Shown one piece after another: positions 3,567-48,753 of a stretch of DNA of 64,000 nt; within the stretch, counting starts at the first letter, position 1, and every line of letters starts with the position of its first letter. This DNA comes from an uncultured Acidobacteriota bacterium (GTDB taxonomy: Bacteria; Acidobacteriota; Thermoanaerobaculia; Multivoradales; UBA5704). The notes under the pieces are model-generated. The model saw only the letters and a program-made list of their open reading frames with translations, made no database searches and was not told the origin of the DNA. The position numbers were made by a program, and so were the translations under genes. Where the stretch lies: NCBI GenBank assembly GCA_963700145.1, contig OY969474.1, positions 96,001 to 160,000 on the forward strand, written 5' to 3'.

Positions 3567-4255
3567 GTCTCCGCCTCCTCGCCGCCCAAGAGCAGGCCGG
3601 CGAGCACCTGCGCCCAGGCTCGCCCGCGGCCTACCACGTACTGCCAGCCGCTCCAGGGCGAGCTCAGCCCCCGATAGCTGGTGAGATCGATCTGCGCGGC
3701 ATCGAGCGGCTGTGCGGCGCCCAGCCGCTCGATCACCTCCGCCAGCACCGAGGCGCCGTTCGGTTGGGGGTAGGTTTCATCGAGCGATTGCAAGGCGCGC
3801 CGCGCTCCCTCCTCGCCCAATCGCTCGAGGAGGACGACGGCGTCGAGATAGTCGCGCGTCGTGTAGCGTACCGCGAGCAGCCAGGCCTTGATCCGCGCCA
3901 TCTCCGCGAGCGTGGGGACGCGAAGCCCGGCCACCTCTTCAGTCTCGAGAGGCCGCACGCGCCGCAGCTGACGAATGCCGGTCAGGATGCCGTCCAGGCG
4001 ACCCAGGATCAAGACCGGCCGGCGGACACGCGAGGTCACCCACCCCGCGGCCGACTCCAAGTCCGCCAGCACCTCATCGAACCGCTCAGCCAAGTTGGCC
4101 AGCACGTGATCTCCATCGAGGCTCAGGCGGTGCCCGGCGTGAATCGCAGCGGCAGTGCCCCCGACCAATACGGTGCCGGGAACGAGCGCCTGGAGGTGGC
4201 GCTCCGCCGCCAGCAAGCGCTCCCACTCGGGCAGCGATTCTTCGGACATGCGCAT
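3563..4255 (-). CDS. AbiEii/DUF1814-like nucleotidyltransferase, putative toxin
   Basis: LVGGTA...HRLSLDGD N-terminal motif and K...RYTTRDYLD C-terminal motif of the DNA pol-beta-like NTase superfamily. Confidence 0.7.
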   Translation of the reverse strand: MRMSEESLPEWERLLAAERHLQALVPGTVLVGGTAAAIHAGHRLSLDGDHVLANLAERFDEVLADLESAAGWVTSRVRRPVLILGRLDGILTGIRQLRRVRPLETEEVAGLRVPTLAEMARIKAWLLAVRYTTRDYLDAVVLLERLGEEGARRALQSLDETYPQPNGASVLAEVIERLGAAQPLDAAQIDLTSYRGLSSPWSGWQYVVGRGRAWAQVLAGLLLGGEEAET

Positions 4256-4317
4256 CAGGATAACGCGAGCGCTCCGTGAGCGCCTGACGAGAACGGCGGT
4301 ATTCTCGCCTGGAAACC

Positions 4318-4806
4318 ATGCACATCCAGGTCTGCCCCAAATGCGGCTCGGAGTTCCAGCCGCACGTCACGGAGTGCATCGACTGCGGCAGCGCGACGGA
4401 GACGCGGTTGGAGTCGCCGCCTGCCGGCCTGGAGGCGGCCCCCGAGGAGCGCGACGACCTCTCGGTCCCGAGCGAAGGCGAGGCGTGCAGCGTCCGCGTC
4501 GGCGATTACCCTGCCGCGCTGGACTTGGCCGCCTGGCTCGAGGAGCATGGGGTGCCCTGCCGCGTGCGCCGGCACTCGACGGAACGGCGTTCCTACGCCG
4601 TCTGGGTAGCGCCGGAGGACCTCGAGCGAGCGCTCGAGCTGGACCGCGAGAATTTCGCCTCCCAGGTGCCCGACGCGCCGGACATGCCGATCGAGCTGCC
4701 CGCGGACCGCTGCCCCGCCTGCGGCGCGCGGATCGCGCCGACCGCGCCGGAGTGCCCGGACTGCGGACTGGTCGTCGACTACGCGCCGGAGGAGCCGGCC
4801 CCCTAA
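4318..4806 (+). CDS. Zinc-ribbon protein with a central DUF2007/PII-like domain
   Basis: CPKC/CIDC at the N-terminus and CPAC/CPDC at the C-terminus; central LEEHGVPC..YAVWV..EDLERA segment. Confidence 0.7.
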   Translation: MHIQVCPKCGSEFQPHVTECIDCGSATETRLESPPAGLEAAPEERDDLSVPSEGEACSVRVGDYPAALDLAAWLEEHGVPCRVRRHSTERRSYAVWVAPEDLERALELDRENFASQVPDAPDMPIELPADRCPACGARIAPTAPECPDCGLVVDYAPEEPAP

Positions 4807-4812
4807 AGAACG

Positions 4813-7272
<2,460 letters not shown>

Positions 7273-7324
7273 GGCACGGTCCTCCCGGGTCCTCCAGATC
7301 GTACGCCGGGAGGGGCGCCGAGTT

Positions 7325-10300
7325 TCAGGCGGCGCGGACCTCGAGCGCGGTGCGCACGGCGCGGCCGAGGTCCTTGGTCGAGAAGGGCTTCTGTAGAAAG
7401 GCGGCCTCATGGTCGCCGAGCGAGAGCTCGTCCTGGCGGCCGGACACGAAGAGCACCGGCGTCTCGGGGCGCAGGGCGAGCAGGCGGCTGGCGAGCTCCG
7501 GGCCGCCCATGCCCGGCATGTTGACGTCGGTCACCAGCAGGTCGAGGGGCCCGTCGTGACGCTCGGCCAGCGCCAGCGCCTCGCGGCCGGAGGCCGCTTC
7601 CAGCACCCGGTAGCCGAGGCCGCGCAGCAGCCTCACCGTCACGCCGCGCACGGCGTGCTCGTCCTCGACCACCAGCACGGTCTCGTTGCCGCCCGGGGCG
7701 GCGGTCTCCTCGGCGCCGCCGGCGGCCGCTTCCAGCTCCGCCACCGGCAGGTAGATGCTGAAGCGCGCGCCTTCCCCCGGCGCGCTGTCGACGAAGATGC
7801 GGCCGCCGCTCTGGCTGACGAAGCCGTAGGCGGTGGCGAGCCCGAGGCCGGTCCCCCCGCCCTCCTGGCGGGTGCTGAAGAAGGGCTCGAAGACCCGCGC
7901 CCGGGTCTCGGCGTCCATGCCGATCCCGGTATCGGCGACGGTGACCAGCACCCAGCGTCCCGCCGGCACCTCGGCGTGCGGCGCCGGCCGGCCGGGATGG
8001 ACGTCGATGGCCGCCGTGCGCACCGTCAAGCGCCCGCCCTGCGGCATGGCGTGGCGGGCGTTGACCGCCAGGTTGACCAGCACGTGCTCCATCCGGCCGG
8101 GGTCGATGAGCACCAGCCCGAGCTCCGGATCGAGCTCCGTCACCAGCTCGACGTCGCCGCCGATCAGGCGGCGGAGCATCTTCTCGACCCCCGTGACCAC
8201 CTGGTTGAAGTCCACCACCTCCGGCTCCATCGCCTGCCGCCGCGCGAAGGCGAGGAGCTCGCGGGTCAGCGCCGAGGCGCGCAGGCCGGCTTCCTGAATG
8301 GCGGTCAGGCTGCTGGTGAGAGGCGCGTCGTCTTCGCGCTCCATCAGCAGCAGGTCGGCGTAGCCCAGGATGACCACCAGACAGTTGTTGAAGTCGTGGG
8401 CGACCCCGGCCGAGAGGCGGCCGATGGCCTCCATCTTCTCGGCGTGGAGGAGCTGCTGCTCGAGCCGCTTCTTGTCCGCCTCGTCGCGCTTGCGGCGCGC
8501 GATGTCGCGCACCGCGACGACCGTCGCGTCTTCGCCCTGGAAGTGGAAGCTCGCGGCCTCGACCTCGAGGTCGACGAGCCCGCCGTCGCGGCGGACGCCG
8601 CTGGTCTCGCGGGCGCCGGCGCCGGGCTCCACCGCCGCGTCGGGGAGGAGCTCGGCCAGCCGCCGGCCGATCAGCTCCGCGGCCTCGTAGCCGAGGATCG
8701 AGGGCAGCGCCTGGTTGACCTCCAGGACGACGCCGCCGCGGACGATCGCGATGCCCTCGACGGTGGCGGCGAACAGAGTGCGGAAGCGCTTCTCGCTGCG
8801 CCGGATCTCCTCCTCGGCCGCCTTGCGCTGCTCGATCTCCTGCTGCGAGCGCTCGAAGAGGCGGATGTTGTCGGCCACCGGCGCGAGCTGGTTGGCGACC
8901 GTGGCGAGCAGGTGGACGTCGCTCGCCGGGAAGTAGTCGTCCGGATCGCGGCGGCCGATGAGCCAGACGCCGATCGTCTCGCCCTGGAGCGCCAGCGGCA
9001 CGACCAGCCGCACCCAGGCGAAGCGCCCGGGCAGCGGGCCCGGCAGGAGCGGCAGGCGGGTGCCGCTGTCGGGCAGGAGCGCGTGCAGCTCGGCGGCGGC
9101 GGGCGCCGCGGCGTCGGGCGGCAAGTCGTGCTCGAAGAGCGGCTCGGCGCGCTCCTCAGCAAACAGATAGAGCGCGGAGCAGCGGATCAGCAGCGCCGGG
9201 AGGACCTGGTCGACCACGACCCGCGCCAGGGTCTCGCGGTCGAAGGCGCTCGAGACGCGCGCCGAGACCAGCTCCACCACCTGCTCGGGCAGGTGCCTGA
9301 TGCCGAAAACGTGGCGGTCCACGAACGCCTGGAAGCGGCCGCGCAGGGCGGGCGCCGCGGTCACCATGACGAGCGCGACGATGAGCGCCGCGCCGTAGAG
9401 CCCGCCCTGGTTGCGCGGCTGGCCGAGCTGCAGCAGGACGAGCAGATAAAGCGGCGCCCAGAGGGCGAAGAAGCCGAAGACGCCGAGCAGCCGGTTGGGG
9501 CGGAACTCGAGCGCGGCGAAGGAGTGCTTGTAGATCGAGTAGAGATAGGACAGCGGCAGCAGGGGAACGGCGAGCAGCGAGATCAGGCCCAGCTCGAGCA
9601 GCCCGCCCTCGAGCTCGCCGCGGCGCGACATCAGCGGCAGCGCGAAGAACACCAGGAAGACCGGCGTGAAGCCGACCGCGACGCCGAAGGCCATGATGCG
9701 GTTGGCGATCTTGACCGCCGGCGACGCCGGCAGCACCAGGCGCACGGCGAGCAGGGCCAGCGCCAGCGCCACCCCCAGGGCGAAGGAGCCGACGTAGAGG
9801 AACTGGATGGCGTCCAGCCGGCGCGCGGCGTCGAGCGCCAGCAGGACGATCGAGCCGCCGTAGAGCAGGCCGAGCAGGGGCGCGCGCCCGCGGCCGAGCA
9901 GCGGCGACGGCAGCAGGAGATGGAGGTGGACGGCCAGCGGCAGGAACAGCCAGACCACGACGTGGAAGACCACCGCCGCCCCGCCGGCGTGGCGGGCCGA
10001 GGCCATCCCCGAAGCGAGCAGGACGGCCGTCAGGTAGCTGAACAGGACGAGCACCAGCCAGCGCTCGTCGTGCGGGCGGAGGAAGATGACCAGCGCCGTC
10101 CCCATCAGCCAGAACACCAGCGGCAGCAGGGTGAGCAGGATGGCGTGCGCCAGGGGGCGTCCGATGTTGCGGCGCACCCCCACCTCCACCGTCCGCACCT
10201 CGCCGGCCCGCAGCAGCCGCACCTCGGCCCTGCCATCGCCGGCGAAGGCCGCGAACGGCTCGGCCATGCGGTCCTGGCGATAGCGCTCGAAGGTCAGTCC

Positions 10301-10519
10301 GCCGATCGACAGCACGCGGTCGCCGACCCGCGGGCAGTCCGCGCCGCGCGGGCAGGGCTCGGCCTGGACGACTTCCCATGTCATGGAGAACGGCGTGAAG
10401 CCGATGTCGGGGAGGAGCGCCGCTTGCGGGTAGTAGACGCAAGACACCAGCGCGAGGAGCGACACGGCGATCCAGACGAGGTCGCCGGCGTGGGGCGCGA
10501 TGGCGCGGCGGCGGTACAT
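7325..10519 (-). CDS. Hybrid sensor histidine kinase/response regulator with a ComP-like input region (TM-PDZ-multi-TM-GAF-PAS-HisKA-HATPase-REC)
   Basis: PDZ-like VGDRVLSIGG after TM1, several TM helices, H-box AHDFNN, NLAVNA/DTGIG/GTGLGL boxes, and receiver VLVVED..LLVTDVNMP..QKPF. ATG 10519 lies 5 bp after the upstream stop. Confidence 0.9.
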   Translation of the reverse strand: MYRRRAIAPHAGDLVWIAVSLLALVSCVYYPQAALLPDIGFTPFSMTWEVVQAEPCPRGADCPRVGDRVLSIGGLTFERYRQDRMAEPFAAFAGDGRAEVRLLRAGEVRTVEVGVRRNIGRPLAHAILLTLLPLVFWLMGTALVIFLRPHDERWLVLVLFSYLTAVLLASGMASARHAGGAAVVFHVVVWLFLPLAVHLHLLLPSPLLGRGRAPLLGLLYGGSIVLLALDAARRLDAIQFLYVGSFALGVALALALLAVRLVLPASPAVKIANRIMAFGVAVGFTPVFLVFFALPLMSRRGELEGGLLELGLISLLAVPLLPLSYLYSIYKHSFAALEFRPNRLLGVFGFFALWAPLYLLVLLQLGQPRNQGGLYGAALIVALVMVTAAPALRGRFQAFVDRHVFGIRHLPEQVVELVSARVSSAFDRETLARVVVDQVLPALLIRCSALYLFAEERAEPLFEHDLPPDAAAPAAAELHALLPDSGTRLPLLPGPLPGRFAWVRLVVPLALQGETIGVWLIGRRDPDDYFPASDVHLLATVANQLAPVADNIRLFERSQQEIEQRKAAEEEIRRSEKRFRTLFAATVEGIAIVRGGVVLEVNQALPSILGYEAAELIGRRLAELLPDAAVEPGAGARETSGVRRDGGLVDLEVEAASFHFQGEDATVVAVRDIARRKRDEADKKRLEQQLLHAEKMEAIGRLSAGVAHDFNNCLVVILGYADLLLMEREDDAPLTSSLTAIQEAGLRASALTRELLAFARRQAMEPEVVDFNQVVTGVEKMLRRLIGGDVELVTELDPELGLVLIDPGRMEHVLVNLAVNARHAMPQGGRLTVRTAAIDVHPGRPAPHAEVPAGRWVLVTVADTGIGMDAETRARVFEPFFSTRQEGGGTGLGLATAYGFVSQSGGRIFVDSAPGEGARFSIYLPVAELEAAAGGAEETAAPGGNETVLVVEDEHAVRGVTVRLLRGLGYRVLEAASGREALALAERHDGPLDLLVTDVNMPGMGGPELASRLLALRPETPVLFVSGRQDELSLGDHEAAFLQKPFSTKDLGRAVRTALEVRAA

Positions 10520-10524
10520 CTCCC

Positions 10525-11478
10525 TCAGCCGGCCGCGCCGCTGAGCACGTCGCCGGCGCCGACCGTCGCGAGCAGGCGCGAGAGCGGCTCGCATTGGCGG
10601 GAGAGGAGCCGCTCGAGGGGGCGCGGATCGCGGATGGGCGCCGCGGCGAGCAACCCCTGCGCTTCCTGCGCGAACGCGGTCAAGCGGTAGAGGCAGTAGG
10701 CGACGGCGCCGCAGCGGGCCAGGATCTGCTGCGCCTCGGCGAGCGCCGCCGGCTCGCCGGCCCGCGCCGCCAGGGCGAGGAAGGCCGCCCGCTCCGGATG
10801 CTCGGCGGTCATGGCGTAGAGGATCGCGAGGTTGCCGCGGCCGCGTCTCCAGTCGGCGCTCGCCGGCGTCTCCAGCGCATCATTGAGGTCGTCGCTCACC
10901 TGGACGAAGTGCGCCATGGCAGCGCCCAGGCGCCCCAGGGCTGCGACCGTCGCGGGCGGCGCGCCGCCCAGAAGGGCGCCGATCTCGAGCGCGGCGGCGA
11001 AGAGCGGCGGCGTCTTGGCGTCGACGACCCGCCAGTACGTCGCTTCGTCCGCCGGCTCGCGGGCGTCCAGCTCCTGCCCGCGCGCCGTCGCCAGCGCCAT
11101 GCGCGCCAGGCACGCCTGCAGGCCGGCGCGGGTAGCGCCGCCGGCCGCGGCTTCGTCGAGGAGCAGATGCGCCGCGGCCTGGAAGGCCAGGGCGAGGTTC
11201 GCGGCGCGCCCGGTCCCGAGGCGCCGGTACTCGCCATGCGGATCGTCGTCCAGCAGATCGTCCACCAAGTGGATGCCGGTGAGGGCGCAGAAGACGGCGG
11301 CGGCCCCGGGGAGTGCCGCCTCGGCCTCGCCGCCCACCGCCAGGCACGCGGCCGGCGGGTAGTCCCAGACCGAGCCGCTCTCCTGGTGCACGGCGCGCTC
11401 GGCGTAGGCCAGCGCCTCCGGCCAGCCGGCGATCTCGGGCAGACCGCGCAGGCGGTCGAGGATCTCTGCAATTGCCAT
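10525..11478 (-). CDS. Polyprenyl synthetase-fold (ComQ-like) isoprenyl transferase
   Basis: First Asp-rich motif HLVDDLLDDD, AKT motif, second motif QVSDDLND, then ADWRRGRGNLAILY. It lacks the GKxxR and DDxxD..RRG signatures of chain-elongating synthases. An alternative in-frame ATG lies near 11574. Confidence 0.8.
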   Translation of the reverse strand: MAIAEILDRLRGLPEIAGWPEALAYAERAVHQESGSVWDYPPAACLAVGGEAEAALPGAAAVFCALTGIHLVDDLLDDDPHGEYRRLGTGRAANLALAFQAAAHLLLDEAAAGGATRAGLQACLARMALATARGQELDAREPADEATYWRVVDAKTPPLFAAALEIGALLGGAPPATVAALGRLGAAMAHFVQVSDDLNDALETPASADWRRGRGNLAILYAMTAEHPERAAFLALAARAGEPAALAEAQQILARCGAVAYCLYRLTAFAQEAQGLLAAAPIRDPRPLERLLSRQCEPLSRLLATVGAGDVLSGAAG

Positions 11479-11551
11479 CGGATGGCGATCCGCGTGAGTC
11501 CGTGCCCCGATCAGGCCGGCCGGCAGGAGGCAATGCGCGTCCTTACGGCGG

Positions 11552-11728
11552 TCAGAGCGATGACCCCTCCTCATGCGTCTCGTGGTTGGTGGTGGGCCAC
11601 ACGCCCCATTCCCCGGGCGCGATGACGCTGAGGTCGTCGATCGGGGGCAGCGCGCGCAAGGCCGCGACAAACGCCTCCGGCTCGGGTGAGGTGAAGCGGT
11701 CATGGAAGCTGTCGATCGTGAGGTGCAT
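11552..11728 (-). CDS. 58-aa Trp-containing peptide, candidate ComX-like precursor (MHLTIDSFHDRFTSPEPEAFVAALRALPPIDDLSVIAPGEWGVWPTTNHETHEEGSSL)
   Basis: Perfect AGGAGG (11743-11738) 9 nt before ATG 11728; first gene upstream of the prenyltransferase and kinase; contains GEWGVWP. Confidence 0.7.
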   Translation of the reverse strand: MHLTIDSFHDRFTSPEPEAFVAALRALPPIDDLSVIAPGEWGVWPTTNHETHEEGSSL

Positions 11729-11743
11729 GGGCAGGGCCCTCCT

Positions 11744-11769
11744 AAAAAAGAGGGGGAGGATTCCCCCTC
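11744..11769 (-). terminator. Intrinsic terminator in the 5' leader of the peptide gene
   Basis: Minus strand reads GAGGGGGA-ATCC-TCCCCCTC then TTTTTT, directly abutting the RBS. Confidence 0.75.
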
Positions 11770-11845
11770 GGTTGCCTGATCCTTCCGACATCGCCTGAGC
11801 GACTGGAGTGGGCGTAGTGTGCCACGGCTTTTCAGCGTCGGGTTG
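11744..11845 (-). ncRNA. Candidate cis-regulatory structured leader RNA or small RNA
   Basis: Closing stem CCGAC/GUCGG encloses GCU-GAAA-AGC, GUGG..CCAC and UCGC-UCAG-GCGA stems, followed by the terminator. An AT-rich TAAGAAT lies just upstream. Confidence 0.4.
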
Positions 11846-11935
11846 AATGATTCTTAACGGCGACGTGCAGAAATCGGGGCAGGTGCGTGCGCGGCGCGAG
11901 CACGGCGATAGGATCGTTTCCTGCCGGAGAGAGAC

Positions 11936-14794
11936 GTGAATCGCGAAGCGGTGCTGCTCGGGATCGTGCGCGAGCTGGCGGCCGAGCTGCGGCCTGGCGG
12001 GCGGCCGGCGCGGGTCCGCGGCGACGCGGTTCTCGACGCCGCGCTCGAGCGCGACCTGGGCTTCGGCAGCCTGGCGCGGGCCGAGCTGTTCCGGCGTGTG
12101 GAGCGGGCGTTCGGCGCGCGCCTGCCGGACGGGTTGCTGGCCGCCGCGGAGACGCCGCGCGACCTCCTGCACGCCCTCGCCGCCGCGGGCTCGGCGCCGG
12201 ACCCCGCGGCACTGGCCGCCGCGCCGCTCGCCGAGCCGGCGGAGGCCGCGCCCGAGTCCACGCGCACGCTCCCCGAGGTCCTCGCCTGGCACGCCGAGCG
12301 CCACCCCGAGCGCCGGCACGTCCTCTTCGAGCCGGGCGACGGCACCAGCGAGGAGCTGACCTACGGCGGGCTGCGGCGGCGGGCGCGCGGGGCGGCGGCG
12401 GCGCTGCGCGAGCAGGGGCTGGCGCCGGGCGAGACCGTTGCCCTCATGCTCCCCACCGGGCTCGAGTACTTCGCCTGTTTCCTCGGCATCCAGCTCGCCG
12501 GCGGCGTGCCGGTGCCGATCTACCCGCCGGCGCGCCCGAGCCAGCTCGAGGACCACCTGCGGCGGCAGGCCGCCATCCTGCGCACCGCCGGCTGCGTGGC
12601 GCTGGTCGCGGCGCCGGAGGTGATGCCGCTCGCCCGCCTCCTGCGCGCCATGCTGCCGGCATTGCGCGAGGTCGTCACGCCTGCCCGGTTGGCGGCGGCG
12701 GGCGACGCGGCGGCCGCGGCGCCGCTGCCACCGGTCGCCGAGGGCGACGTCGCCTTCCTGCAGTTCACCTCGGGCTCGACCGGCGATCCCAAGGGCGTCG
12801 TCCTGACGCATGCCAACCTGCTCGCCAACCTGCGGGCGATCGGCCAGGGGATCGAGCTGCTGCCCGAGGACGTGGTCGTGAGCTGGCTGCCGCTCTACCA
12901 CGACATGGGGCTGATCGGCACCTGGATGGGGAGCCTCTACTACGGCCTGCCGCTGGTGCTGCTGCCGCCGACCTCGTTCCTGGCGCGGCCGGTGCGCTGG
13001 CTGCAAGCCATCTCGCGCCACCGCGCCACTCTCTCGGCGGCGCCCAACTTCGCCTACGAGCTGTGCGTGCGCAAGGTCGACGACGGCGAGCTCGCCGGGC
13101 TCGACCTCGCCTGCTGGCGGCTGGCGCTCAACGGCGCCGAGCCGGTGAGCCCGGAGACGCTGCGCCGCTTCGCCGAGCGCTTCGCGCCGCTCGGCTTCCG
13201 CGAGACGGCGATGAAGGCGGTCTACGGCCTCGCCGAGTGCTCGCTCGCGCTCTGCTTCCCGGCCGCCGGCGCGCCGCGGATCGACGCCGTCGCCCGCGCG
13301 CCCTTCGCGCGCGACGGCCGCGCCCTGCCGGCGGCCGCCGGCGACCCGCGCCCGCTGCGCTTCGTCTCCTGCGGCGTGCCGCTTCCCGGCCACGAGGTGC
13401 GCATCGTCGGCGAGGAAGGCCGGGAGCTGCCGGAGCGGCGGGAGGGGCGGCTGGAGTTCCGCGCCCCGTCGGCGACGAGCGGCTACTTCGGCAACCCGGC
13501 GGCCACGGCGCGCCTGCTGCGCGGCGGCGGCTGGCTCGACTCGGGGGACCTCGCCTACGTCGCCGGCGGCGAGGTCTTCGTCACCGGCCGGGTCAAGGAC
13601 GTCATCCTGATCGCCGGGCGCAACCTCTACCCGCAGGAGCTGGAGGAGGCGGTGGGGGAGCTGCCCGGCGCGCGCAAGGGGTGCGTGGCGGCGTTCGGAC
13701 GGCCCGACCCGGCGGCCGGCACGGAGCAGCTCGTCGTGGTCGCCGAGACCGGCGAGAGCGCGGAGCCGGCGCGCGAGCGGCTGCGCGAGGCGATCCGCCG
13801 GACGACGGTGGACCTCCTCGGCACGCCGCCGGACGACGTGGTGCTGGCGCCGCCGGGCACCGTGCCCAAGACCTCCAGCGGCAAGCTCCGCCGCGCGGCG
13901 GCGCGCGAGCTCTACCTGCGCGGTCGGCTCGGCCGGCGGCGCGCGGCGCCGGCGGTGCAGCTCGCGCAGCTCGCCTGGAGCGGTGCCGGGCCGCAGCTCG
14001 CGCGCTGGCGGCGGCGGGCGGGCGAGAGCCTCTACGCCGCCTGGGCCTGGCTCCTCTTCGGCCTCTTCGCGGCGCCGGCGTTCCTCGGCGTCTGTTTGCT
14101 GCCGCGCCTCTCCTGGCGGCGCCGCTTCGCGCGCCGGGCGGGGCGGCTCATGGCCCGCCTCGCCGGCATCCGGCTTGCCGTCCGCGGCCTCGAGCACCTG
14201 GCCGAAGCGCGCCCGCGCATCGTCGTCGCCAACCACCAGAGCACCCTCGACGCCTACGTCCTGACCGCCGCGCTGCCGCCCGACCTCGCCTTCGTCGCCA
14301 AGCGCGAGCTGGCGGGGAACCCCTTCGCGCGCGTCTTCCTGGCGCGGCTGGGGACCTTTCTCGTCGAGCGCTTCGATCCGCAGCAGGGCTCGGCGGACGC
14401 CGGCCGCGCCCTCGCCGCGGTGCGCGCCGGCGAGTCGCTCCTCTTCTTCGCCGAGGGGACCTTCGGCCGCGCCCCGGGGCTGCTGCCGTTTCAGCTCGGC
14501 GCCTTCGTCGCCGCGGCGGAGGCGGGAGTGCCGGTCGTGCCGGTCGTCGTGCGCGGCACGCGGTCGCTCCTGCGCGGCGAGGAGTGGTTCCCGCGCCGCG
14601 GCGCGGCGGAGGTGATCGTGCGGCCGCCGATCGCGCCGGCCGGCGCCGGCTGGGGCGCCGCGCTGGCGCTGCGCGACGCGGTGCGCGCCGAGGTCCTGGC
14701 GGCCTGCGGCGAGCCCGACCTCGCGGCCGGCGCGAAGGCCTTCGCGCCCGAGCCGCCGCCCGGGCGTTTGACCGCCCGCGCGGCCGGCCGCTAG
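11936..14794 (+). CDS. ACP + fatty acyl-AMP ligase + PlsC-type acyltransferase fusion
   Basis: DLGFGSL carrier motif; FLQFTSGSTGDPKG, WLPLYHDMGLIG, YGLAE and PKTSSGK adenylation motifs; NHQSTLD and FFAEGT acyltransferase motifs. Confidence 0.9.
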   Translation: MNREAVLLGIVRELAAELRPGGRPARVRGDAVLDAALERDLGFGSLARAELFRRVERAFGARLPDGLLAAAETPRDLLHALAAAGSAPDPAALAAAPLAEPAEAAPESTRTLPEVLAWHAERHPERRHVLFEPGDGTSEELTYGGLRRRARGAAAALREQGLAPGETVALMLPTGLEYFACFLGIQLAGGVPVPIYPPARPSQLEDHLRRQAAILRTAGCVALVAAPEVMPLARLLRAMLPALREVVTPARLAAAGDAAAAAPLPPVAEGDVAFLQFTSGSTGDPKGVVLTHANLLANLRAIGQGIELLPEDVVVSWLPLYHDMGLIGTWMGSLYYGLPLVLLPPTSFLARPVRWLQAISRHRATLSAAPNFAYELCVRKVDDGELAGLDLACWRLALNGAEPVSPETLRRFAERFAPLGFRETAMKAVYGLAECSLALCFPAAGAPRIDAVARAPFARDGRALPAAAGDPRPLRFVSCGVPLPGHEVRIVGEEGRELPERREGRLEFRAPSATSGYFGNPAATARLLRGGGWLDSGDLAYVAGGEVFVTGRVKDVILIAGRNLYPQELEEAVGELPGARKGCVAAFGRPDPAAGTEQLVVVAETGESAEPARERLREAIRRTTVDLLGTPPDDVVLAPPGTVPKTSSGKLRRAAARELYLRGRLGRRRAAPAVQLAQLAWSGAGPQLARWRRRAGESLYAAWAWLLFGLFAAPAFLGVCLLPRLSWRRRFARRAGRLMARLAGIRLAVRGLEHLAEARPRIVVANHQSTLDAYVLTAALPPDLAFVAKRELAGNPFARVFLARLGTFLVERFDPQQGSADAGRALAAVRAGESLLFFAEGTFGRAPGLLPFQLGAFVAAAEAGVPVVPVVVRGTRSLLRGEEWFPRRGAAEVIVRPPIAPAGAGWGAALALRDAVRAEVLAACGEPDLAAGAKAFAPEPPPGRLTARAAGR

Positions 14795-14828
14795 GATCGA
14801 TCGAAACGACTCGACAAACCGAGGCCTC

Positions 14829-16832
14829 ATGGCGAAGGACAAGAGCGACGCCGGCGCCGCGCCCCAGCTCACCCGCGGGCTGCTGGAGCAGCTCATGCTC
14901 GGCACCGGCCGGGTGCGGCGCTTCACCCAGGACACCCCCGTCCTGCCCGACGTCTGGCTGGAGTACGCCAAGGGACCGGACGATCCGACGCGGCGCACCG
15001 GCGGGGGAGCCGGCGAGGACCCCTACCCGGCCGTCAAGCTGCTGCTGACGCCGTACCGCGAGAACCTGAGCGGCGACGTGCGGAAGGCCCTGTGGGAGCG
15101 GCTGGGCGAGCAGCGCAAGCGCCCCGAGTGGCGGCGCTTCGGCCACGACCCCAAGAAGCCGCCGCGACTGGTCTACAACCAATCCACGGTGGCGGCGACC
15201 CTCTACTTCGAGGACCTCATCCGGGTCGTCCTGCCGATGACCGACTGGTGGGCGAAGCTGGTCAAGCGCCTGGACTTCGCGCGCCTCCAGCTCGCGCCGG
15301 TGCAGAAGGGCCTCGCGCAGGCGGTCCGCGACCCCGAGCACCCGCCGCTGCTGGAGCAGCGCCGCCTGCCGCCCGACCTGCTGTGGATGGTGCGGGTGGT
15401 GGGCGCCCTGGCGCTCGTCCACCGCGGCGAGCCGCTGCCGGCGAGCTTCGCCCCTGACCGCGGCGGCGTCGCCAATGCCAAGCCCGCCGACTGGGAGAAG
15501 CTGGTGGCGGCGGTCGCCGACCTCATCCACGACCTCGATCCCGCCCCGCCGGACGCGCGCATCTACTCGGTCAGCCTCAACCGCGAGGCCGCGCCGACCG
15601 TCGCCCGCTCCGTGCTGTCGATCAAGGCCGATGCGGCGCGGCTGCTCTTCAACATCTCCTGCCGCAGCCTCGCCTGGGCGGTCATCGACAGCGGCATCGA
15701 CGCCACGCACCCCGCCTTCCGCCAGCGTCAGGAAGGCAAGGACGGCGGGCTCTACAAGACGCCGTTCCCGGTGGAGGACAAGAAGCCCGCCAACCGCACG
15801 CGCGTCCACGCGACCTACGACTTCTCGCAGATCGACCTCCTCCTCGACCCCGACAGCGACGACCAGCCCGAGGCGCTGATGAAGCTGAAGGAGGGGAAGT
15901 CGACGGCGGCGGCGAAGCAGCTCGACGCGCAGCTCGCGGACCTCAACAGCGAGCTCCGCGCCGGCCGCACCATCGACTGGAAGCTCATCGCCGAGCTGCT
16001 GCGCGTGCCGCACGAAAAGGGCAAGTACCGGCCGCCGGTCAACGACCACGGCACGCACGTGGCGGGGATCCTCGCCGGCGACTGGCGGAAGGCCGAGTCG
16101 AACGGCGCGCTGGAAGACGACCTCGTCGGCGTTTGCCCCGACCTCCGTCTCTACGACCTGCGAGTCCTCGACGACGAGGGGCGCGGCGACGAGTTCGCGG
16201 TGATGGCGGCGCTGCAGTTCGTCCGCTACCTCAACTCCACCAACGACTACACCGCCGTTCACGGCGTCAACCTGAGTCTCTCGATCCCGCACGACGTCTC
16301 CAACTACGCCTGCGGCCGCACGCCGGTCTGCGACGAGGCCGAGCGCGTGGTCTCCTCCGGCGTCGTGGTGGTCGCCGCGGCGGGGAACCAGGGCTATCGG
16401 CGCTACTCGACGCCCGAAGGCGTGAGCGTCGACATGTACAACACCATCAGCATCACCGACCCGGCCAACGCCGAGCTGGTGATCACCGTCGGCGCCACCC
16501 ACCGCTACCGGCCGCACACTTACGGGGTCAGCTACTTCTCCAGCCGCGGGCCGACCGGCGACGGGCGCCTGAAGCCCGACCTGGTGGCGCCGGGGGAGAA
16601 GATCACCGGCCCGCTGCCCGGCGAGCTCTTCGGGCTCAAGGACGGGACGAGCATGGCGGCGCCGCACGTCAGCGGCGCGGCGGCCCTGCTCATGGCGCGC
16701 CACAACGAGCTGGTCGGCCGTCCCGCCCGCATCAAGCAGATCCTCTGCGCCACCGCCACCGACCTGGGGCGCGAGCGCTACTTCCAGGGCGCCGGGATGC
16801 TCGACGTCCTGCGCTCGCTGCAATCAGTCTGA
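14829..16832 (+). CDS. S8 subtilisin-like serine protease without signal peptide
   Basis: Catalytic triad VIDSGID / HGTHVAGI / GTSMAAPHV and oxyanion AAAGN; no hydrophobic N-terminus. Confidence 0.9.
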   Translation: MAKDKSDAGAAPQLTRGLLEQLMLGTGRVRRFTQDTPVLPDVWLEYAKGPDDPTRRTGGGAGEDPYPAVKLLLTPYRENLSGDVRKALWERLGEQRKRPEWRRFGHDPKKPPRLVYNQSTVAATLYFEDLIRVVLPMTDWWAKLVKRLDFARLQLAPVQKGLAQAVRDPEHPPLLEQRRLPPDLLWMVRVVGALALVHRGEPLPASFAPDRGGVANAKPADWEKLVAAVADLIHDLDPAPPDARIYSVSLNREAAPTVARSVLSIKADAARLLFNISCRSLAWAVIDSGIDATHPAFRQRQEGKDGGLYKTPFPVEDKKPANRTRVHATYDFSQIDLLLDPDSDDQPEALMKLKEGKSTAAAKQLDAQLADLNSELRAGRTIDWKLIAELLRVPHEKGKYRPPVNDHGTHVAGILAGDWRKAESNGALEDDLVGVCPDLRLYDLRVLDDEGRGDEFAVMAALQFVRYLNSTNDYTAVHGVNLSLSIPHDVSNYACGRTPVCDEAERVVSSGVVVVAAAGNQGYRRYSTPEGVSVDMYNTISITDPANAELVITVGATHRYRPHTYGVSYFSSRGPTGDGRLKPDLVAPGEKITGPLPGELFGLKDGTSMAAPHVSGAAALLMARHNELVGRPARIKQILCATATDLGRERYFQGAGMLDVLRSLQSV

Positions 16833-16845
16833 AGGAGGAGCCGCG

Positions 16846-17994
16846 ATGCTGGTCCTCGAAGCGCTGCGCGCCAAGTACGGCGACGCCCTGCTGCTCCACT
16901 CCGGCGACGAAGACGACCCGCAGCTCGTCGTCATCGACGGCGGCCCGCCCGGGGTCTACAACGACGCCCTCAAGCCGCGGCTGGAAGAGCTGCGCGCAGA
17001 GCGCGGGCTGGAGGAGGGGACGCCGCTCGACGTCGCCCTGATGATGGTCAGCCACATCGACGAGGACCACATCGCCGGCATCCTGCAGCTGGTGCGGCAG
17101 CTCAAGGACCTGGAGGACTCCGGCGAGCCGCGGCTGTGGAAGGTCCGCCGCTTCTGGCACAACTCCTTCGACGACATCATCGGCAACGACGACGTCGCGG
17201 TCGCCTCCACTGCCTCGGTGGTGAGCACGGCCTCGATCGGCGACCTGCTGCGGCCGGAGGGGTCGCTGGTGCTGGCCAGCGTCGGCCAGGGGCGCGAGCT
17301 GCGCAAGCTGCTCGACGCCTTGAGTCTCGACGGCAACCCGCCGTTCAAAGGGCTGGTGCGGGCCGGCAAGAAGGCGTTCAAGATCGGCGACCTCACGCTC
17401 ACCGTCGTGGCGCCGCTCGAGGAGGAGATCGCCGCCCTGCAGGAGGACTGGGACAAGAAGATCAAGCCGATCCTGAAGAAGGAGAAGGACGCGGCGGCGC
17501 GCGCCGAGGCCGCCGCCTACGTCGACGAGTCGGTCTACAACCTGTCGAGCATCGTCGTGCTGGTCGAGTCGCAGGGCAAGCGGCTGCTCCTGACCGGCGA
17601 CGGCCGCGGCGACCACACGCTGCGCGGCCTCGAGGAAGCGAAGCTCCTCGACAAGAAGGGCCGGATGAAGGTCGACGTCCTCAAGCTCCCGCACCACGGC
17701 AGCGTGCGCAACGTCGAGTCCGACTACTTCGAAGCGATCCGCGCCGACCACTACGTCGTCTCGGCCGACGGCAAGTTCGACAATCCCGACCTCGAGACCC
17801 TGGAGCTGATCTCCGCCGCCCGCCCGGACGACAAGTTCACCATCCACTTGACCTATCCGACCGACGAGTTCAACGTACCGAAAATCGGCAAGGCCGTCGC
17901 GAAGTTCTTCGCCAAGGAGAAGGCCGCCGGGCGCAAGTACAAGGTCAAGACGCGCGCTTCCGGCGACCTCTCCTTCCGTCTCGAGCTCGCCTAG
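16846..17994 (+). CDS. Metallo-beta-lactamase-fold (ComEC/Rec2-like) hydrolase
   Basis: GDALLL, IDGG, SHIDEDH, LLTGD and KLPHHGS motifs; AAGGAGG RBS; starts 13 bp after the S8 stop. Confidence 0.85.
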   Translation: MLVLEALRAKYGDALLLHSGDEDDPQLVVIDGGPPGVYNDALKPRLEELRAERGLEEGTPLDVALMMVSHIDEDHIAGILQLVRQLKDLEDSGEPRLWKVRRFWHNSFDDIIGNDDVAVASTASVVSTASIGDLLRPEGSLVLASVGQGRELRKLLDALSLDGNPPFKGLVRAGKKAFKIGDLTLTVVAPLEEEIAALQEDWDKKIKPILKKEKDAAARAEAAAYVDESVYNLSSIVVLVESQGKRLLLTGDGRGDHTLRGLEEAKLLDKKGRMKVDVLKLPHHGSVRNVESDYFEAIRADHYVVSADGKFDNPDLETLELISAARPDDKFTIHLTYPTDEFNVPKIGKAVAKFFAKEKAAGRKYKVKTRASGDLSFRLELA

Positions 17995-18052: not shown

Positions 18053-19951
18053 ATGCGCGCACGTCGTCTCCCGCTTCGCCATCTCTCTCTCGCTGCCGCG
18101 GCGGCGGCGCTCCTGCTCGCCGTCCTCGCCGGTCGCCCCGGGGCGGCGCGCACCGCCAAGCCGGTGCTCCACGCCCGGCACTGGCTGGCGATCACCGGGA
18201 AGCCCTTGGCCGCCACCGCCGGCGCGATGACCTTCCAGAAGGGCGGCAACGCCGTCGACGCCGCCTGCGCCATGCTCGCCGCGACCTGCACCATGTGGGA
18301 CACCCTGGGCTGGGGGGGCGAGACGCAGGCGCTGATCTGGAACCCCGAGACGCGCAAGGTCATCGGCGTCAACGCCCTCGGCGTGGCGCCGACCGGCGCC
18401 ACGCCCGAGTACTTCCGCGCCAAGCAGATGCCCTACCCGCCAGAGTTCGGGCCGCTCGCCGCGGTCACTCCCGGCACGCCGGGCGGGCTCCTCGTCATGC
18501 TCGCCGAGTACGGCCGCCTGTCGCTCGCCGAGGTGCTCGCCCCCGCCCTGCAGCTCGCCGACGGCTACCCGATCGAGCAGCAGCTCGCCGACCGCATCGA
18601 GCGCGACAAGGCACGCCTCAAGGAGTGGCCGTACTCGCGCACGACGCTGCTGCCGCACCTCGGCGAGCCGCGCGAGGCGCCGCGCGCCGGCGAGGTCTTC
18701 AAGCAGCCGGAGCTCGCCGCCACGCTGCGCAAGCTGATCGAGGCCGAGCGCCAGGCCCTCGCCGCCGGCAAGTCGCGCAAGGAAGCGATCCAGGCCGCCT
18801 ACGACCGCTTCTACAAGGGCGACATCGCCGCCGAGCTGGCGCGCGGCGCGCAGGAGCAGGGCGGCCTCATCACGGCCGAGGACCTGGCGCGCTGGGAGGT
18901 CAAGCTGGAGGAGCCGGTCAAGACGACCTACAAGGGCGTCGAGGTCTACAAGCTCACCACCTGGACGCAGGGGCCGGCGCTGCTCCAGGCGCTCAACCTC
19001 CTCGAGCCGCTCGACCTGCGCGGCATGGGCCTCAACAGCGCGCGCTACGTCCACACGCTCTACCAGGCGATGAGCCTGGCCTTCGCCGACCGCGACTTCT
19101 ACTACGGCGACCCCTACGCGCCGCCGGAGGAGCCGGTGCGCGGGCTGCTGTCGAAGGAGTACGCGGCGGCGCGGCGGCAGACCATCGACTGGGAGAAGAA
19201 CGACCCGGCGATCGGCCCGGGCGATCCCTACCCGTTCGAGGGGAAGGCGGCGAATCCCTACCGCGAGCTGCTGGAGCGGTGGGGGAGGCCGCGCGGCGGG
19301 GAGGAGTGGACGCAGCCCGTCCAGGGCGCGGCGCTACGCGACGCGCGGCGCGCCGACGAGGCCTTCCGCGCCGGCACCACCTCGGTCGTCGCCGCGGATG
19401 CCGAGGGTTGGGTGGTGTCGATGACGCCTTCCGGTGGCTGGATCCCGGCCACCATCGCCGGCAAGACCGGCGTCGGTCTCTCGCAGCGCATGCAGAGCTT
19501 CGTCCTCGACCCGGCGGAGAACCCGTTCAACGTCCTCGCCCCGGGCCGGCGGCCGCGCGTCACGCTGACGCCGACCCTGGCGCTCAAGGACGGCCGCCCC
19601 TGGCTGGCTTTCGCCGTCCAGGGAGGCGACACCCAAGACCAGAACCTCCTGCAGTTCTTCCTCGACGTCGTCGAGTTCGGCATGAACGTGCAGGAGGCGG
19701 CCGAGGGGCCCAACATCACCAGCTACCAGATGCGCAGCTCCTTCGGCGACCACGCGGTGCAGCCCGGGCGGCTGACCGTCCACGCCAGCACGCCTCCCTG
19801 GGTGCGCGACCAGCTGGCGCAGATGGGCTACGCGGTCGAGGTCGAGGAGCGCACGTCGGGGCCGATCAACGCCATCCTCCTCGACCACGCCCACGGCACG
19901 ATGTGGGGCGGCTCCAGCGACCACGGCGAGGACTACGGGATCGGCTGGTAG
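18053..19951 (+). CDS. ggt: Gamma-glutamyltransferase family protein
   Basis: Signal peptide, GGNAVDAA motif, autoprocessing GTTSVVAADAEG, and GGDTQDQ. Confidence 0.88.
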   Translation: MRARRLPLRHLSLAAAAAALLLAVLAGRPGAARTAKPVLHARHWLAITGKPLAATAGAMTFQKGGNAVDAACAMLAATCTMWDTLGWGGETQALIWNPETRKVIGVNALGVAPTGATPEYFRAKQMPYPPEFGPLAAVTPGTPGGLLVMLAEYGRLSLAEVLAPALQLADGYPIEQQLADRIERDKARLKEWPYSRTTLLPHLGEPREAPRAGEVFKQPELAATLRKLIEAERQALAAGKSRKEAIQAAYDRFYKGDIAAELARGAQEQGGLITAEDLARWEVKLEEPVKTTYKGVEVYKLTTWTQGPALLQALNLLEPLDLRGMGLNSARYVHTLYQAMSLAFADRDFYYGDPYAPPEEPVRGLLSKEYAAARRQTIDWEKNDPAIGPGDPYPFEGKAANPYRELLERWGRPRGGEEWTQPVQGAALRDARRADEAFRAGTTSVVAADAEGWVVSMTPSGGWIPATIAGKTGVGLSQRMQSFVLDPAENPFNVLAPGRRPRVTLTPTLALKDGRPWLAFAVQGGDTQDQNLLQFFLDVVEFGMNVQEAAEGPNITSYQMRSSFGDHAVQPGRLTVHASTPPWVRDQLAQMGYAVEVEERTSGPINAILLDHAHGTMWGGSSDHGEDYGIGW

Positions 19952-21102
19952 GCGCGCGCGCGGGCGCCGCGCCACTGCCCGATCCGGATCACCACGAACT
20001 CGGCGGGGCGCGTCGGCGCGAAGCCGATCTCGATGTTGACGACGCCGCGGTCGATCTCCTCCTGCGTCATCGTGTCCCTGCCGCAGCGGGCGTAGTACGC
20101 CTCGCCCGGCGTGCTCCCCTGGAAGGCGCCCTGGCGGAAGAGGTCGTGCAGGAACTCGCCGGCGCGGCGCCGCACCTCGTCCCAGAGCGGCTCGGCGTTG
20201 GGCTCGAAGACCGCCCACTGGGTGCCGCGGCAGATACTCTCTTCGAGGTAGAGAGCGAAGCGGCGCACCGGGACGTACTTCCACTCCGACCCCTGCGCGT
20301 CGGTGCCGGCCAGGGTGCGCGCCCCCCAGGCGACGGTGCCGTGGTCGAGGACGGTGCGCAGGCCGTTGACGCCCAGCGCGGCGAGCGTCGCGCCGTCGCG
20401 CTCGGTCAGCGCGTGGGCCGGCTCCTCGCCGCCGCGCAGCGGCAGGGCGGTGCCGCCCGGCGCCTTCCAGGCGCCGCGCACGACGTCGCTGCGGGCGTAG
20501 AGCCCCGCCAGCGCGCCGCTCGCGGCGACGTCGCGCGGCCGGCCCGGGACGCGCAGCCGCGGGAAGTAGACCGCGGCGTTGCGGTGGCGCAGGGCCTCGT
20601 TCTCGGCGACCCAGGCCTGCATGGCGGCGGCGTCGCGGACGCTCTCGGGGATGTCGACCAGGAGGAAAGCGCGGCGCTCCTCGCAGTAGGCCGCGGCGGC
20701 GGTGTAGACGGCGCGCATCTCCGCGGGGGGGAGGTCCGCCGCTTCCGGCAGGCAGAGGACGTTGAAGAGATCGACGCTGTAGAGCGCGAAGAGCCCCGTC
20801 CCGTCGGCGCGGGTGCCGGACAGCGCCGCGGCGGTGGCCGCGGCGACGCGCACGACATAGGCGGCCGTGCCGCCGTTGAGGAAGAACCGGCGGACGGCGT
20901 CGCACACCAAGCACGCCTCGTCGGGGTCGCCGAAGACGCGCACGAAGTCGGCGAGGCTCAGGACCTGGACGGGCCGGTCGAGCGGCCCCTGCGGGAAGGT
21001 GCCGACGAAGGCGGCGACGGAGGTGGCGACGCCTTCGATCGTGCGCACACCGGTGGCGACCTCCTCGAGGAAGACGCCTGGGTAGATCGGTGTGCCGGGC
21101 AT
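19933..21102 (-). CDS. Contractile phage tail sheath family protein (eCIS/Afp-like)
   Basis: YPGVFLEEV..RTIEGVATSVAAFVG, FFLNGG, WGARTL, WKYVPVRR, WAVFEPN and PAEFVVIRI motifs. Confidence 0.9.
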   Translation of the reverse strand: MPGTPIYPGVFLEEVATGVRTIEGVATSVAAFVGTFPQGPLDRPVQVLSLADFVRVFGDPDEACLVCDAVRRFFLNGGTAAYVVRVAAATAAALSGTRADGTGLFALYSVDLFNVLCLPEAADLPPAEMRAVYTAAAAYCEERRAFLLVDIPESVRDAAAMQAWVAENEALRHRNAAVYFPRLRVPGRPRDVAASGALAGLYARSDVVRGAWKAPGGTALPLRGGEEPAHALTERDGATLAALGVNGLRTVLDHGTVAWGARTLAGTDAQGSEWKYVPVRRFALYLEESICRGTQWAVFEPNAEPLWDEVRRRAGEFLHDLFRQGAFQGSTPGEAYYARCGRDTMTQEEIDRGVVNIEIGFAPTRPAEFVVIRIGQWRGARARAYQPIP

Positions 21103-21149
21103 GGGAAGGGCGGGGCGGCCGCGGCCGGCCCCGCCGGCGGGCGACTATT

Positions 21150-23918: not shown

Positions 23919-23940
23919 GGGCCACCTCCTCGGTGCAACG

Positions 23941-23971
23941 AAAAGGCGGGGCGGGCCGCAGCCCGCCCCGC
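23941..23971 (-). terminator. Terminator hairpin between the tandem peptidases
   Basis: Stem GCGGGGCGGGC/GCCCGCCCCGC followed by CTTTT on the minus strand. Confidence 0.65.
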
Positions 23972-23985
23972 GCGTGGTGAAACTC

Positions 23986-26823: not shown

Positions 26824-27008
26824 AGCGCTTTTTCCTCCACTCACCGCCGCCGGCGGCGTGCCGGCGGGGTCCGCCCTGTCCCCCCCAAAGGAAGTCGTGC
26901 TGCGGGCCGGCCAAACGGGACATGGCGCCGGCCGGGGGCTTCCCGAAGGGAAACATTCATAGTGCCGCGAGGAGACAAAAGCGGGACAAAATCGGCTAAG
27001 ATCGTCAC

Positions 27009-27257
27009 ATGCCGACACGAGAGAAGAAGGCCCCCCAGGGCGCCCGCGGCGCCTCCCCCCGGCCGGCGCGCACCGCTCCGGCCCCGCTGACCCCCGTCGC
27101 CGCCGCTCCGTCCGCCCCGCAGGGGATCGGCGCCGTGCGGGTCTACCTGAGCTCGCGCGAGCTCGACACCCTCCACCAGGTGGCGCGGGAGAAGGGGCAG
27201 TCCCCTTCGGGCATCCTGCGCCAGGCCTTCCGGGCCTACGTCAACTTCCAGGACTAG
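27009..27257 (+). CDS. Small ribbon-helix-helix (CopG-like) DNA-binding protein
   Basis: VRVYLSSRELDTLHQVAREKGQSPSGILRQAFRAY fits the beta-helix-helix RHH pattern. Confidence 0.65.
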   Translation: MPTREKKAPQGARGASPRPARTAPAPLTPVAAAPSAPQGIGAVRVYLSSRELDTLHQVAREKGQSPSGILRQAFRAYVNFQD

Positions 27258-48571: not shown

Positions 48572-48753
48572 GCCCGCTCGCCTAGCAACCCGGATGCCCG
48601 GCGTTTACGCCCGCAAACGCCCTGTTTGCAGGGCGTTCCGCCGCTCGCGCGTCCATCCGGGTGGACGGGTTCAGCGTGCCGTCTCCGGTCCGCCGGATCG
48701 TCCGCCGCGCGCGCTGAAACATGGTCCCCGGCGCGTGCGTAAGGAAACAGCAA

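Follow-up and report, generated by a model that had tools for sequence, protein, structure and literature searches.

A putative ComQXP-like prenyl-peptide signalling cassette with a distinct sensor kinase in Acidobacteria and Chloroflexi

Introduction

A stretch of 64,000 nucleotides from an uncultured Acidobacteriota bacterium (positions 96,001 to 160,000 of OY969474.1, a single contig of 5.46 Mb; G+C of the stretch about 73%; hereafter the window) carries four consecutive minus-strand genes for a small peptide, an isoprenyl-synthase-fold enzyme, a hybrid sensor kinase and an ADOP permease, the first three of which make up the cassette described here. Peptide, enzyme and sensor kinase form a conserved, co-inherited unit in many Acidobacteria and Chloroflexi, and their sequence features make it probable that the cassette encodes a prenyl-peptide signal and its receptor in the manner of ComQXP, built on a different branch of the prenyl synthases and on a different receptor. 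A sequence-only reading of the window had already pointed to a ComX-, ComQ- and ComP-like cassette of three co-oriented, closely spaced genes in a probable acidobacterium. The open reading frames (ORFs) are indeed those it had delineated, and relatives of the window genes bear the name Thermoanaerobaculia. The likeness itself gains support from the synteny, the co-occurrence of the genes, a tryptophan motif in the peptide, the loss of the isopentenyl diphosphate (IPP)-binding motifs from the enzyme and a variable island.

Prenylated-Trp pheromones have so far been a speciality of Bacillus and the Firmicutes, to which one Chloroflexi pair was added in 2026, its receptor not included. In this line, a 2014 census of ComQXPA reports none outside the Firmicutes (PMC4008528). 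If the proposed reading is right, the cassette would represent a receptor-linked and widespread version of such signalling in poorly studied soil and sludge phyla, together with a new family of membrane sensor modules (more than 500 clusters) with a candidate ligand and a link between a peptide signal and cyclic di-GMP (c-di-GMP). It would also provide natural Trp-prenylating enzyme variants whose second Asp-rich motif is intact, which makes them interesting for the lipidation of peptides. The cassette is, moreover, unusually suited to direct testing.

Conservation and distribution of the unit

At least 170 genome loci were found, and 84 related loci (83 distinct, L008 and L070 being identical DNA) served as the comparison set. 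A search of these neighbourhoods, of the kind suggested alongside the first reading, recovered peptide ORFs in 77 of the 84 loci and, by tblastn, the sensor module of the kinase adjoining the enzyme in 77 of the 84 as well. The order peptide, transferase, kinase that had been read in the window is the usual one there, and in 68 loci the sensor lies on the same strand, directly downstream of the enzyme. Of the sensor-negative loci, five (L014, L018, L042, L083 and L084) stop no more than about 700 nt past the enzyme match, and the other two, L075 and L077, extend 8 kb downstream.

Whole genomes gave a similar picture. With a threshold of E<=1e-30, the same five of 401 sampled Acidobacteriota genomes have both enzyme and sensor and the remaining 396 have neither; these carriers belong to three genera and are therefore not five independent cases. 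Within 301 Chloroflexota genomes, the enzyme was found in four, and the sensor in those four plus one more.

One contig (L082) labelled as a Promethearchaeota archaeon also carries peptide, enzyme and sensor. Its enzyme nests in the Anaerolineae group of the tree; the contig is probably bacterial, placed by binning in an archaeal metagenome-assembled genome (MAG).

The putative precursor peptide and its family

The short Trp-containing peptide proposed from the sequence is borne out by its ORF, by a preceding AGGAGG, by homologs across the loci and by a G+C content at codon positions 1, 2 and 3 (0.63, 0.49 and 0.88) that matches the coding pattern of this genome; the same peptide is present as a called gene in a public protein collection (P0154). 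It lacks a signal sequence and belongs to no Pfam or NCBIfam family, and its homologs have no Pfam domain. A conserved N-terminal leader, with an invariant F8 and a near-invariant L24, the Leu inside an L-R-x-L stretch, is followed by a core formed by W41-x-x-W44 and 14 further residues, an organization like that of ComX, in which a precursor of about 55 aa carries a Trp in its C-terminal core.

When a profile hidden Markov model (HMM) of the family was built without the window, the window peptide was the sole significant match in its 5.46-Mb genome (E 1.7e-5), in a run that covered every stop-to-stop frame and gave a next match of E 2.5; judged on these sequence scores, the match of the small-peptide gene is far beyond chance. 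Over the 84 loci plus the window, the family HMM gave 114 ORF matches in 77 of the 85 sources. The window and L021, a Thermoanaerobaculia MAG that is its closest relative, carry the peptide gene too (in L021 it was found by a separate search), and both were missed in this count because of a 260-aa length filter, as the frame stays open in G+C-rich DNA. Five further HMM-negative loci have the enzyme beginning 5-488 nt from the locus start, and L069 is the only locus with intact flanks and no match to the peptide HMM. As for their position, 79 copies lie upstream of the enzyme on the same strand, 34 downstream on the same strand and 1 on the opposite strand, the downstream ones being second copies located almost always between enzyme and kinase. 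In a collection of 5.8 billion proteins the peptide family amounts to 127 members at E<=0.001, and the named ones are all 'hypothetical'.

The W-x-x-W motif required a separate assessment. The first peptide seeds had been selected by this very pattern, so that the count of 106/112 obtained with them is circular, and it was replaced by a test with an HMM of the leader only. Behind the leader, 102 of 107 unique hits showed W-x-x-W and all 107 some Trp, whereas Trp pairs spaced by 0, 1, 3, 4 or 5 residues occurred 0-2 times each and the background frequency of W-x-x-W was 231 in 7804 other ORF tails of the loci. Of the leader-only matches outside the seed set, 8 of 13 have the motif. In Chloroflexota peptides W-x-x-W stands at or close to the C-terminus, and those of Acidobacteriota have a tail after it (median of 12 residues over all 106); six peptides contain at least two copies. 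The core itself varies: P0232, a 60-aa protein named Thermoanaerobaculia, has a near-identical leader and a different core that retains the motif, the alleles reading E-W-G-V-W-P in the window and Q-W-T-Q-W-N in P0232, with a single Trp in L021.

The enzyme

The enzyme matches Pfam PF00348 (E 2.8e-14; 53.4 bits for a cut-off of 27) over model positions 75-239 only, its N-terminal third being divergent, and its start at 11478 is consistent with 26 aligned homologs. The four ordinary synthases of the same genome reach 154-223 bits. All NCBIfam equivalogs scored far below cut-off (the best, 60.1 bits versus 450), and no ComQ-named NCBIfam model was found at E<=0.01. Its ESM Atlas matches are polyprenyl_synt clusters only. 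A search for longer fused forms of the enzyme at E<=1e-10 found none, which is weak evidence.

In the window enzyme the two Asp-rich motifs read D73 D74 x x D77 and Q193 x x D196 D197 x x D200 and are thus intact; all 84 family ORFs have both as well. An alignment of the window enzyme and seven family members with the four paralogs revealed that DDxLDxD, the KT motif and Q-x-x-DDxxD are retained, and that GGKRxRP and RRG, the motifs for IPP binding, are absent, the RRG being the one expected past the first Asp-rich motif. Among the four canonical paralogs of the genome, on the other hand, GGKRxRP is found in three and RRG in all four, the fourth paralog showing a variant of GGKRxRP. The fold without GKxxR and RRG that had been noticed at first thus stands in the alignment with these synthases. 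The Gln before the second motif is not discriminating, because the canonical paralogs have it too.

The AlphaFold2 (AF2) model of the enzyme (pLDDT 87.7) shows an all-helical synthase fold, with Foldseek template-modelling scores of 0.7-0.77 to geranylgeranyl diphosphate (GGPP) and polyprenyl synthases. In a FastTree phylogeny, a quick method in which long branches meet at the outgroups, 80 family rows are separated from the four paralogs by a branch of 0.89 with a Shimodaira-Hasegawa-like support of 90, and within the family Chloroflexota and Acidobacteriota form two groups, the second of which includes Plesiocystis. The features of peptide Trp prenyltransferases related to trans-isoprenyl diphosphate synthases, abbreviated as trans-IDS, namely the fold, the first Asp-rich motif, the Gln and an adjacent gene for a Trp-containing precursor, are all found here, and on this sequence evidence the enzyme is proposed to be a peptide Trp prenyltransferase.

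The sensor kinase

Pfam finds GAF, PAS, HisKA, HATPase_c and REC domains in the kinase, in agreement with the GAF-PAS-HisKA-REC hybrid that had been described at first, and has no match on residues 1-430. An AF2 model of these residues (pLDDT 86.3, pTM 0.85) consists of one helix, a beta domain at residues 36-115 and nine more helices, which fits the earlier description of the input as a transmembrane segment followed by a PDZ domain and a multi-transmembrane region. The conserved motifs of this sensor module are FWLAGT, HLHL and FRANRL. The beta domain resembles the PDZ domain of 4l8n (VIA: Z 7.7, root-mean-square deviation 2.9, 80 residues) and the PDZ pieces of RseP, MucP and DegS, the latter with Foldseek probabilities of 0.98-0.99 but E > 0.2, and the homolog of L063 reaches 22.7 bits for Pfam PDZ_2, under the 27-bit cut-off. 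For the sensor model as a whole, Foldseek had no match at E<=0.001, and the top rows of VIA were ACER3 (Z 9.9) and G-protein-coupled receptors (Z 8-9.4), under the trusted level for helical bundles, so that a 7TM or CREST relationship is a possibility. A site-2-protease-like sensor, considered for its transmembrane-PDZ-transmembrane layout and His motifs, was set aside: the protein has neither HExxH nor a Pfam match to M50, and the RseP match involves PDZ pieces only.

By sequence, the sensor module is a family of its own, with 519 representative clusters at E<=1e-30. Within the best 150 of the matches listed, it begins in the first 42 residues of proteins of 368-1631 aa. The 18 homologs adjacent to the enzyme have outputs of HisKA and HATPase with or without REC, HisKA_3 and HATPase, or HD_5; as one module fused to varied outputs, it behaves as a portable sensor.

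The absence of an adjacent ComA-like regulator, as stated in the sequence-only reading, holds for the window and not for many of its relatives. Of 80 loci, 44 have a response regulator of the REC-EAL type immediately upstream of the peptide (for example at 4836-6068 of L012), with 62-96% mutual identity, and it was found in most of the Thermoanaerobaculia and Holophagales loci examined. The genome of the window has no ortholog of this regulator, only EAL or REC pieces 28-34% identical.

A variable island between close relatives

The window and L021 are colinear over 15.4 kb, and their comparison reveals a marked contrast along the locus. In the flanks, the proteins are 96% (ADOP permease), 96% (ligase fusion) and 91% (S8 peptidase) identical, and the transmitter of the kinase is similarly conserved (REC 95%, catalytic core 95%, PAS 92.5%), whereas identity falls to 67% in the GAF domain, 69% in the membrane bundle, 54% in the PDZ part, 71% in the enzyme and 53% in the peptide. 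Measured over 300 bases at a time, nucleotide identity drops to 55-77% between about 11850 and about 8900, versus 93-99% outside, with 0.85 and 0.82 in the two 300-base segments at the edges. The synonymous divergence (dS) is 0.44-0.61 inside the island and 0.08-0.17 outside, that is, 4-6 times higher, and the ratio of non-synonymous to synonymous divergence (dN/dS) is highest in the PDZ part (0.75). This pattern points to an exchanged or long-maintained divergent allele and not to mere relaxation.

Peptide, enzyme and sensor input co-vary in this way between the window and L021, and a weaker trend is seen in 26 further pairs of loci with kinase cores at least 88% identical, in which the transmitter is better conserved than the PDZ part (39-91%), the bundle (57-95%) or the enzyme (67-96%). 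By analogy, the island resembles the pherotype diversity of comQXP in Bacillus, where intraspecific diversity of comQXPA has been described (PMC4408185, PMC4008528).

Comparison with known prenyl-peptide systems

The cassette differs from ComQXPA in its order, peptide-enzyme-(second peptide)-kinase here versus comQ-comX-comP-comA, in the presence of two Trp residues as W-x-x-W in the core, and in a receptor with a PDZ-like domain, GAF and PAS that is a HisKA hybrid with REC. ComP belongs to the HisKA_3 class of kinases, as do some of the Chloroflexota sensor homologs. No regulator of the ComA/NarL type is adjacent, many relatives having the upstream REC-EAL instead, and the hosts are diderm phyla. 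In spite of these differences, both systems share a precursor that is some 55-60 aa long and has its Trp in a variable C-terminal core, an enzyme of the prenyl-synthase fold with the first Asp-rich motif and without a chain-elongation role (here predicted), a same-strand membrane histidine kinase (here predicted to be polytopic, with ten helices, HisKA and REC), and a locus without a dedicated exporter or protease. The co-variation of peptide, enzyme and kinase input between close relatives is a further likeness (PMC4408185, PMC4008528).

Trans-IDS-like peptide transferases listed in a 2026 review are ComQ, the P domain of ChrPC and PalQ, all of which target Trp (PMC13290415). To these, a preprint of August 2026 added StheQ of Sphaerobacter thermophilus (Chloroflexi), which farnesylates a Trp of StheX in vitro (10.64898/2026.08.29.745113). 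As described there, this is also a non-Firmicute prenyl-synthase-fold enzyme beside a peptide (69 aa) with Trp near its C-terminus; enzyme and peptide form a stable complex, and the second motif is preceded at a distance of three residues by a Gln, the counterpart of Q193 here. Unlike in the cassette, the gene for StheX follows that for its enzyme, StheQ has DExxD as first motif and, as second, a pseudo second Asp-rich motif (pseudo-SARM), NDxxD, that binds no metal, the Trp pair of StheX is WW at positions -3 and -2 and not W-x-x-W, and the word 'kinase' is absent from the preprint text. On the other hand, PalP-PalX-PalQ of Paenibacillus alvei does combine a histidine kinase, a precursor and a Trp prenyltransferase of the isoprenoid-synthase superfamily. 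As reported (PMC10853753), PalX differs by an NHLP-type leader and a strictly C-terminal Trp, and PalQ by a cluster of its own annotated as terpene-synthase-like and a Firmicute host, the window enzyme being a member of PF00348. Finally, with canonical trans-isoprenyl diphosphate synthases the enzyme has in common the fold, the KT motif, the two DDxxD motifs and the Gln that precedes the second of them, and it is set apart from these synthases by the lack of GGKRxRP/RRG and by its constant linkage to peptide and sensor.

The best reading is that of an analogue of ComQXP and not a member. The family differs from what is described in its canonical second motif, W-x-x-W core, gene order, receptor with a PDZ-like domain and, in many relatives, REC-EAL, and its enzyme may be a separate recruitment of the synthase fold relative to ComQ, PalQ and StheQ. 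The earlier claim of an undescribed non-Firmicute system stands in part: a literature search found no description of this cassette family, although supplementary network tables of the PalQ paper and of a 2026 review could list it, but StheQ and StheX (10.64898/2026.08.29.745113) are a precedent outside the Firmicutes.

Proposed mechanism and alternative explanations

In the proposed mechanism, the 58-aa precursor would bind the enzyme through its conserved and presumably helical leader. With the allylic-diphosphate/Mg2+ site kept (Asp-rich motifs and KT) and the IPP site lost, the enzyme would ionise a prenyl diphosphate and prenylate W-x-x-W at one of its indoles or at both. The lipidated peptide may then leave the cell and be trimmed by functions encoded outside the cassette, to be recognised by the predicted periplasmic PDZ-like domain and/or by the ten-helix module of the putatively co-transcribed hybrid kinase, which would signal through GAF, PAS, HisKA, HATPase and REC. 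Many relatives could relay it further, to the adjacent REC-EAL, a predicted c-di-GMP phosphodiesterase. A wider proposal, made here tentatively, is that of a peptide-pheromone quorum sensing of the diderm phyla Acidobacteriota and Chloroflexota, with a singly or doubly prenylated W-x-x-W peptide, a new receptor class of PDZ domain and ten helices, pherotypes, and a c-di-GMP output through REC-EAL in most of the Thermoanaerobaculia and Holophagales loci examined.

Several observations weigh against a prenyl-peptide signal with its own receptor. Regarding the enzyme, the second motif is a full DDxxD and not the NDxxx of ComQ; according to the preprint, ComQ and StheQ have a pseudo-SARM (NDxxx) at this place, which is metal-free in StheQ (10.64898/2026.08.29.745113). 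With this motif intact, a second diphosphate substrate is possible. The best matches in sequence and fold are chain-elongating synthases, and the indole transferase Ord1 (9v4g) reaches E 1.7e-9 versus 1.1e-15 for 9imq and is not among the Foldseek top 50. As for the peptide, the second Trp is absent in 5 of the 107 peptides and in the L021 allele. The sharp island rests on a single close pair, the window and L021, and the faster change of input domains in the 26 looser pairs could be explained by lower constraint. Peptide and enzyme can also occur apart from the sensor: Plesiocystis pacifica SIR-1 (genome G403) has a peptide with three GWxxW repeats (7721-7993 of L075) and the enzyme 8 nt on, with no sensor homolog in its 10.6-Mb genome at E<=1e-10. 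Conversely, two sensors, L103 (G515:C19) and L104 (G402:C11), have neither enzyme nor peptide within 6 kb; the first belongs to the extra Chloroflexota genome mentioned above, the second is an additional copy in G402, which has a full cassette elsewhere, and both may be orphan receptors. Moreover, neither an exporter nor a protease is a conserved part of the cassette across the related loci, and in diderm hosts the lipopeptide would need to cross the outer membrane.

An ORF downstream of the Plesiocystis enzyme (8885-11047 of L075) was tried as a sensor and rejected as unrelated (hhalign probability 0.3).

The Plesiocystis pair and the solitary sensors are what might be expected if peptide and enzyme were a pair making a RiPP (a peptide synthesised on the ribosome and modified after translation) whose product, for instance a membrane-active or antibiotic lipopeptide, is no signal for the kinase, the latter regulating the genes by some other cue. 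Multi-core peptides with 2-3 GWxxW repeats do resemble natural-product precursors, and prenylation of the PalQ type yields antimicrobial lipopeptides (PMC13290415). This explanation is nonetheless considered unlikely, since the peptide, the enzyme and the sensor input have diversified together beside a conserved transmitter, the occurrence of enzyme and sensor is almost one-to-one in both phyla, and no immunity or export genes are conserved.

That the enzyme acts on a small molecule, either free Trp or indole in the manner of Ord1 or an isoprenoid in that of a terpene or prenyl-diphosphate synthase, with the small protein as partner, scaffold or regulator and the kinase sensing the product, seems quite improbable. 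The canonical second DDxxD, the prenyl diphosphate synthases as nearest solved relatives and the PF00348 match above cut-off would suit such an activity, but the IPP-binding motifs have been lost in a genome that keeps four canonical paralogs, the NCBIfam equivalogs are as distant as stated (60 bits versus 450), and the peptides, with a conserved leader followed by a variable core in which W-x-x-W keeps its strict spacing, have the pattern of a modified precursor. Very improbable, finally, is an unmodified peptide acting as signal or regulator, be it an intracellular modulator of the GAF domain or a C-terminal ligand of the PDZ domain, with an unrelated role for the enzyme: PDZ domains bind peptide C-termini and the peptide has no signal sequence, yet it still accompanies the enzyme at loci that have no kinase or have it on the opposite strand, and the enzyme shares the variable island with it.

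Locus layout and neighbouring genes

The coordinates of the cassette and of its neighbours are collected in Table 1. Peptide and enzyme are separated by 73 nt, and the kinase starts 5 nt past the enzyme stop. The peptide gene has in its 5' leader, 6 nt 5' of the Shine-Dalgarno sequence and at a place where no minus-strand gene ends, a hairpin that is rich in G+C and has a T run; it gave six overlapping terminator-like calls versus 0.9 expected. Compared with L021, the stem is conserved and the T run in part, the upstream leader region being 91% identical, and the hairpin may be an attenuator of the cassette. A scan of 4000-17000 found no Rfam family at gathering score, and a search of 7000-12100 for sigma-70-like promoters found none.

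Table 1. Features of the cassette and its surroundings in the window
Feature	Position	Strand	Basis
Precursor peptide gene, 58 aa	11552-11728	minus	ORF and ribosome-binding site; aligned with 105 homologs
Shine-Dalgarno-like AGGAGG, 9 nt 5' of the peptide ATG	11738-11743	minus	sequence; kept in L021
G+C-rich hairpin then T run, 5' leader of the peptide gene	11750-11769	minus	
Trans-isoprenyl-diphosphate-synthase-fold enzyme, 317 aa	10525-11478	minus	Pfam, alignments, AF2, Foldseek
Hybrid sensor kinase, 1064 aa	7325-10519	minus	Pfam
Kinase sensor module, residues 1-430	9230-10519	minus	AF2 model, PDZ matches, alignment
PDZ-like domain, residues 36-120, predicted periplasmic	10160-10414	minus	
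Kinase GAF domain, residues 431-570, within the variable island	8810-9229	minus	Pfam
Kinase transmitter: PAS 578-673, HisKA 700-762, HATPase_c 806-927, REC 948-1055	7325-8809	minus	Pfam
Variable island versus L021	about 8900-11850		sliding nucleotide identity
ADOP-family duplicated permease	4813-7272	minus	TIGR03434, 919 bits
PP-binding/fatty-acyl-AMP-ligase/PlsC-type acyltransferase fusion	11936-14794	plus, divergent from the cassette	
S8 peptidase	14829-16832	plus	

The co-oriented ABC permease, of the ADOP family, does start 52 nt downstream of the kinase, as had been read; the suggestion that it might be an exporter or an output of the cassette is not supported, since it adjoins the cassette only in L021 among the 84 loci and in L045 lies 4 kb off on the opposite strand. 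It was rejected as a part of the unit, and so were the S8 peptidase and the acyl-AMP ligase fusion, for these accompany the cassette only in L021. Taken by themselves, the latter two genes (11936-16832) resemble a pair for lipid or lipopeptide tailoring. Across the loci, no neighbour other than REC-EAL, present in 44-45 of them, is conserved, the remainder being antisense ORFs of G+C-rich DNA. A gamma-glutamyltranspeptidase is found a few kb away in the window (18053-19951) and in 17 related loci, such as at 14247-15962 of L035; this may reflect synteny of the lineage or a functional connection, for instance in peptide processing.

Farther along the window, the minus-strand region 19933-27018 contains a gene with a phage-tail-sheath C-terminal domain followed by ORFs of 922 and 1010 aa without a Pfam family, which may be part of a contractile injection system. 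A second duplicated permease of the MacB/FtsX type and an OmpR-type two-component pair are located at 48721-51171 and 31524-33927, respectively.

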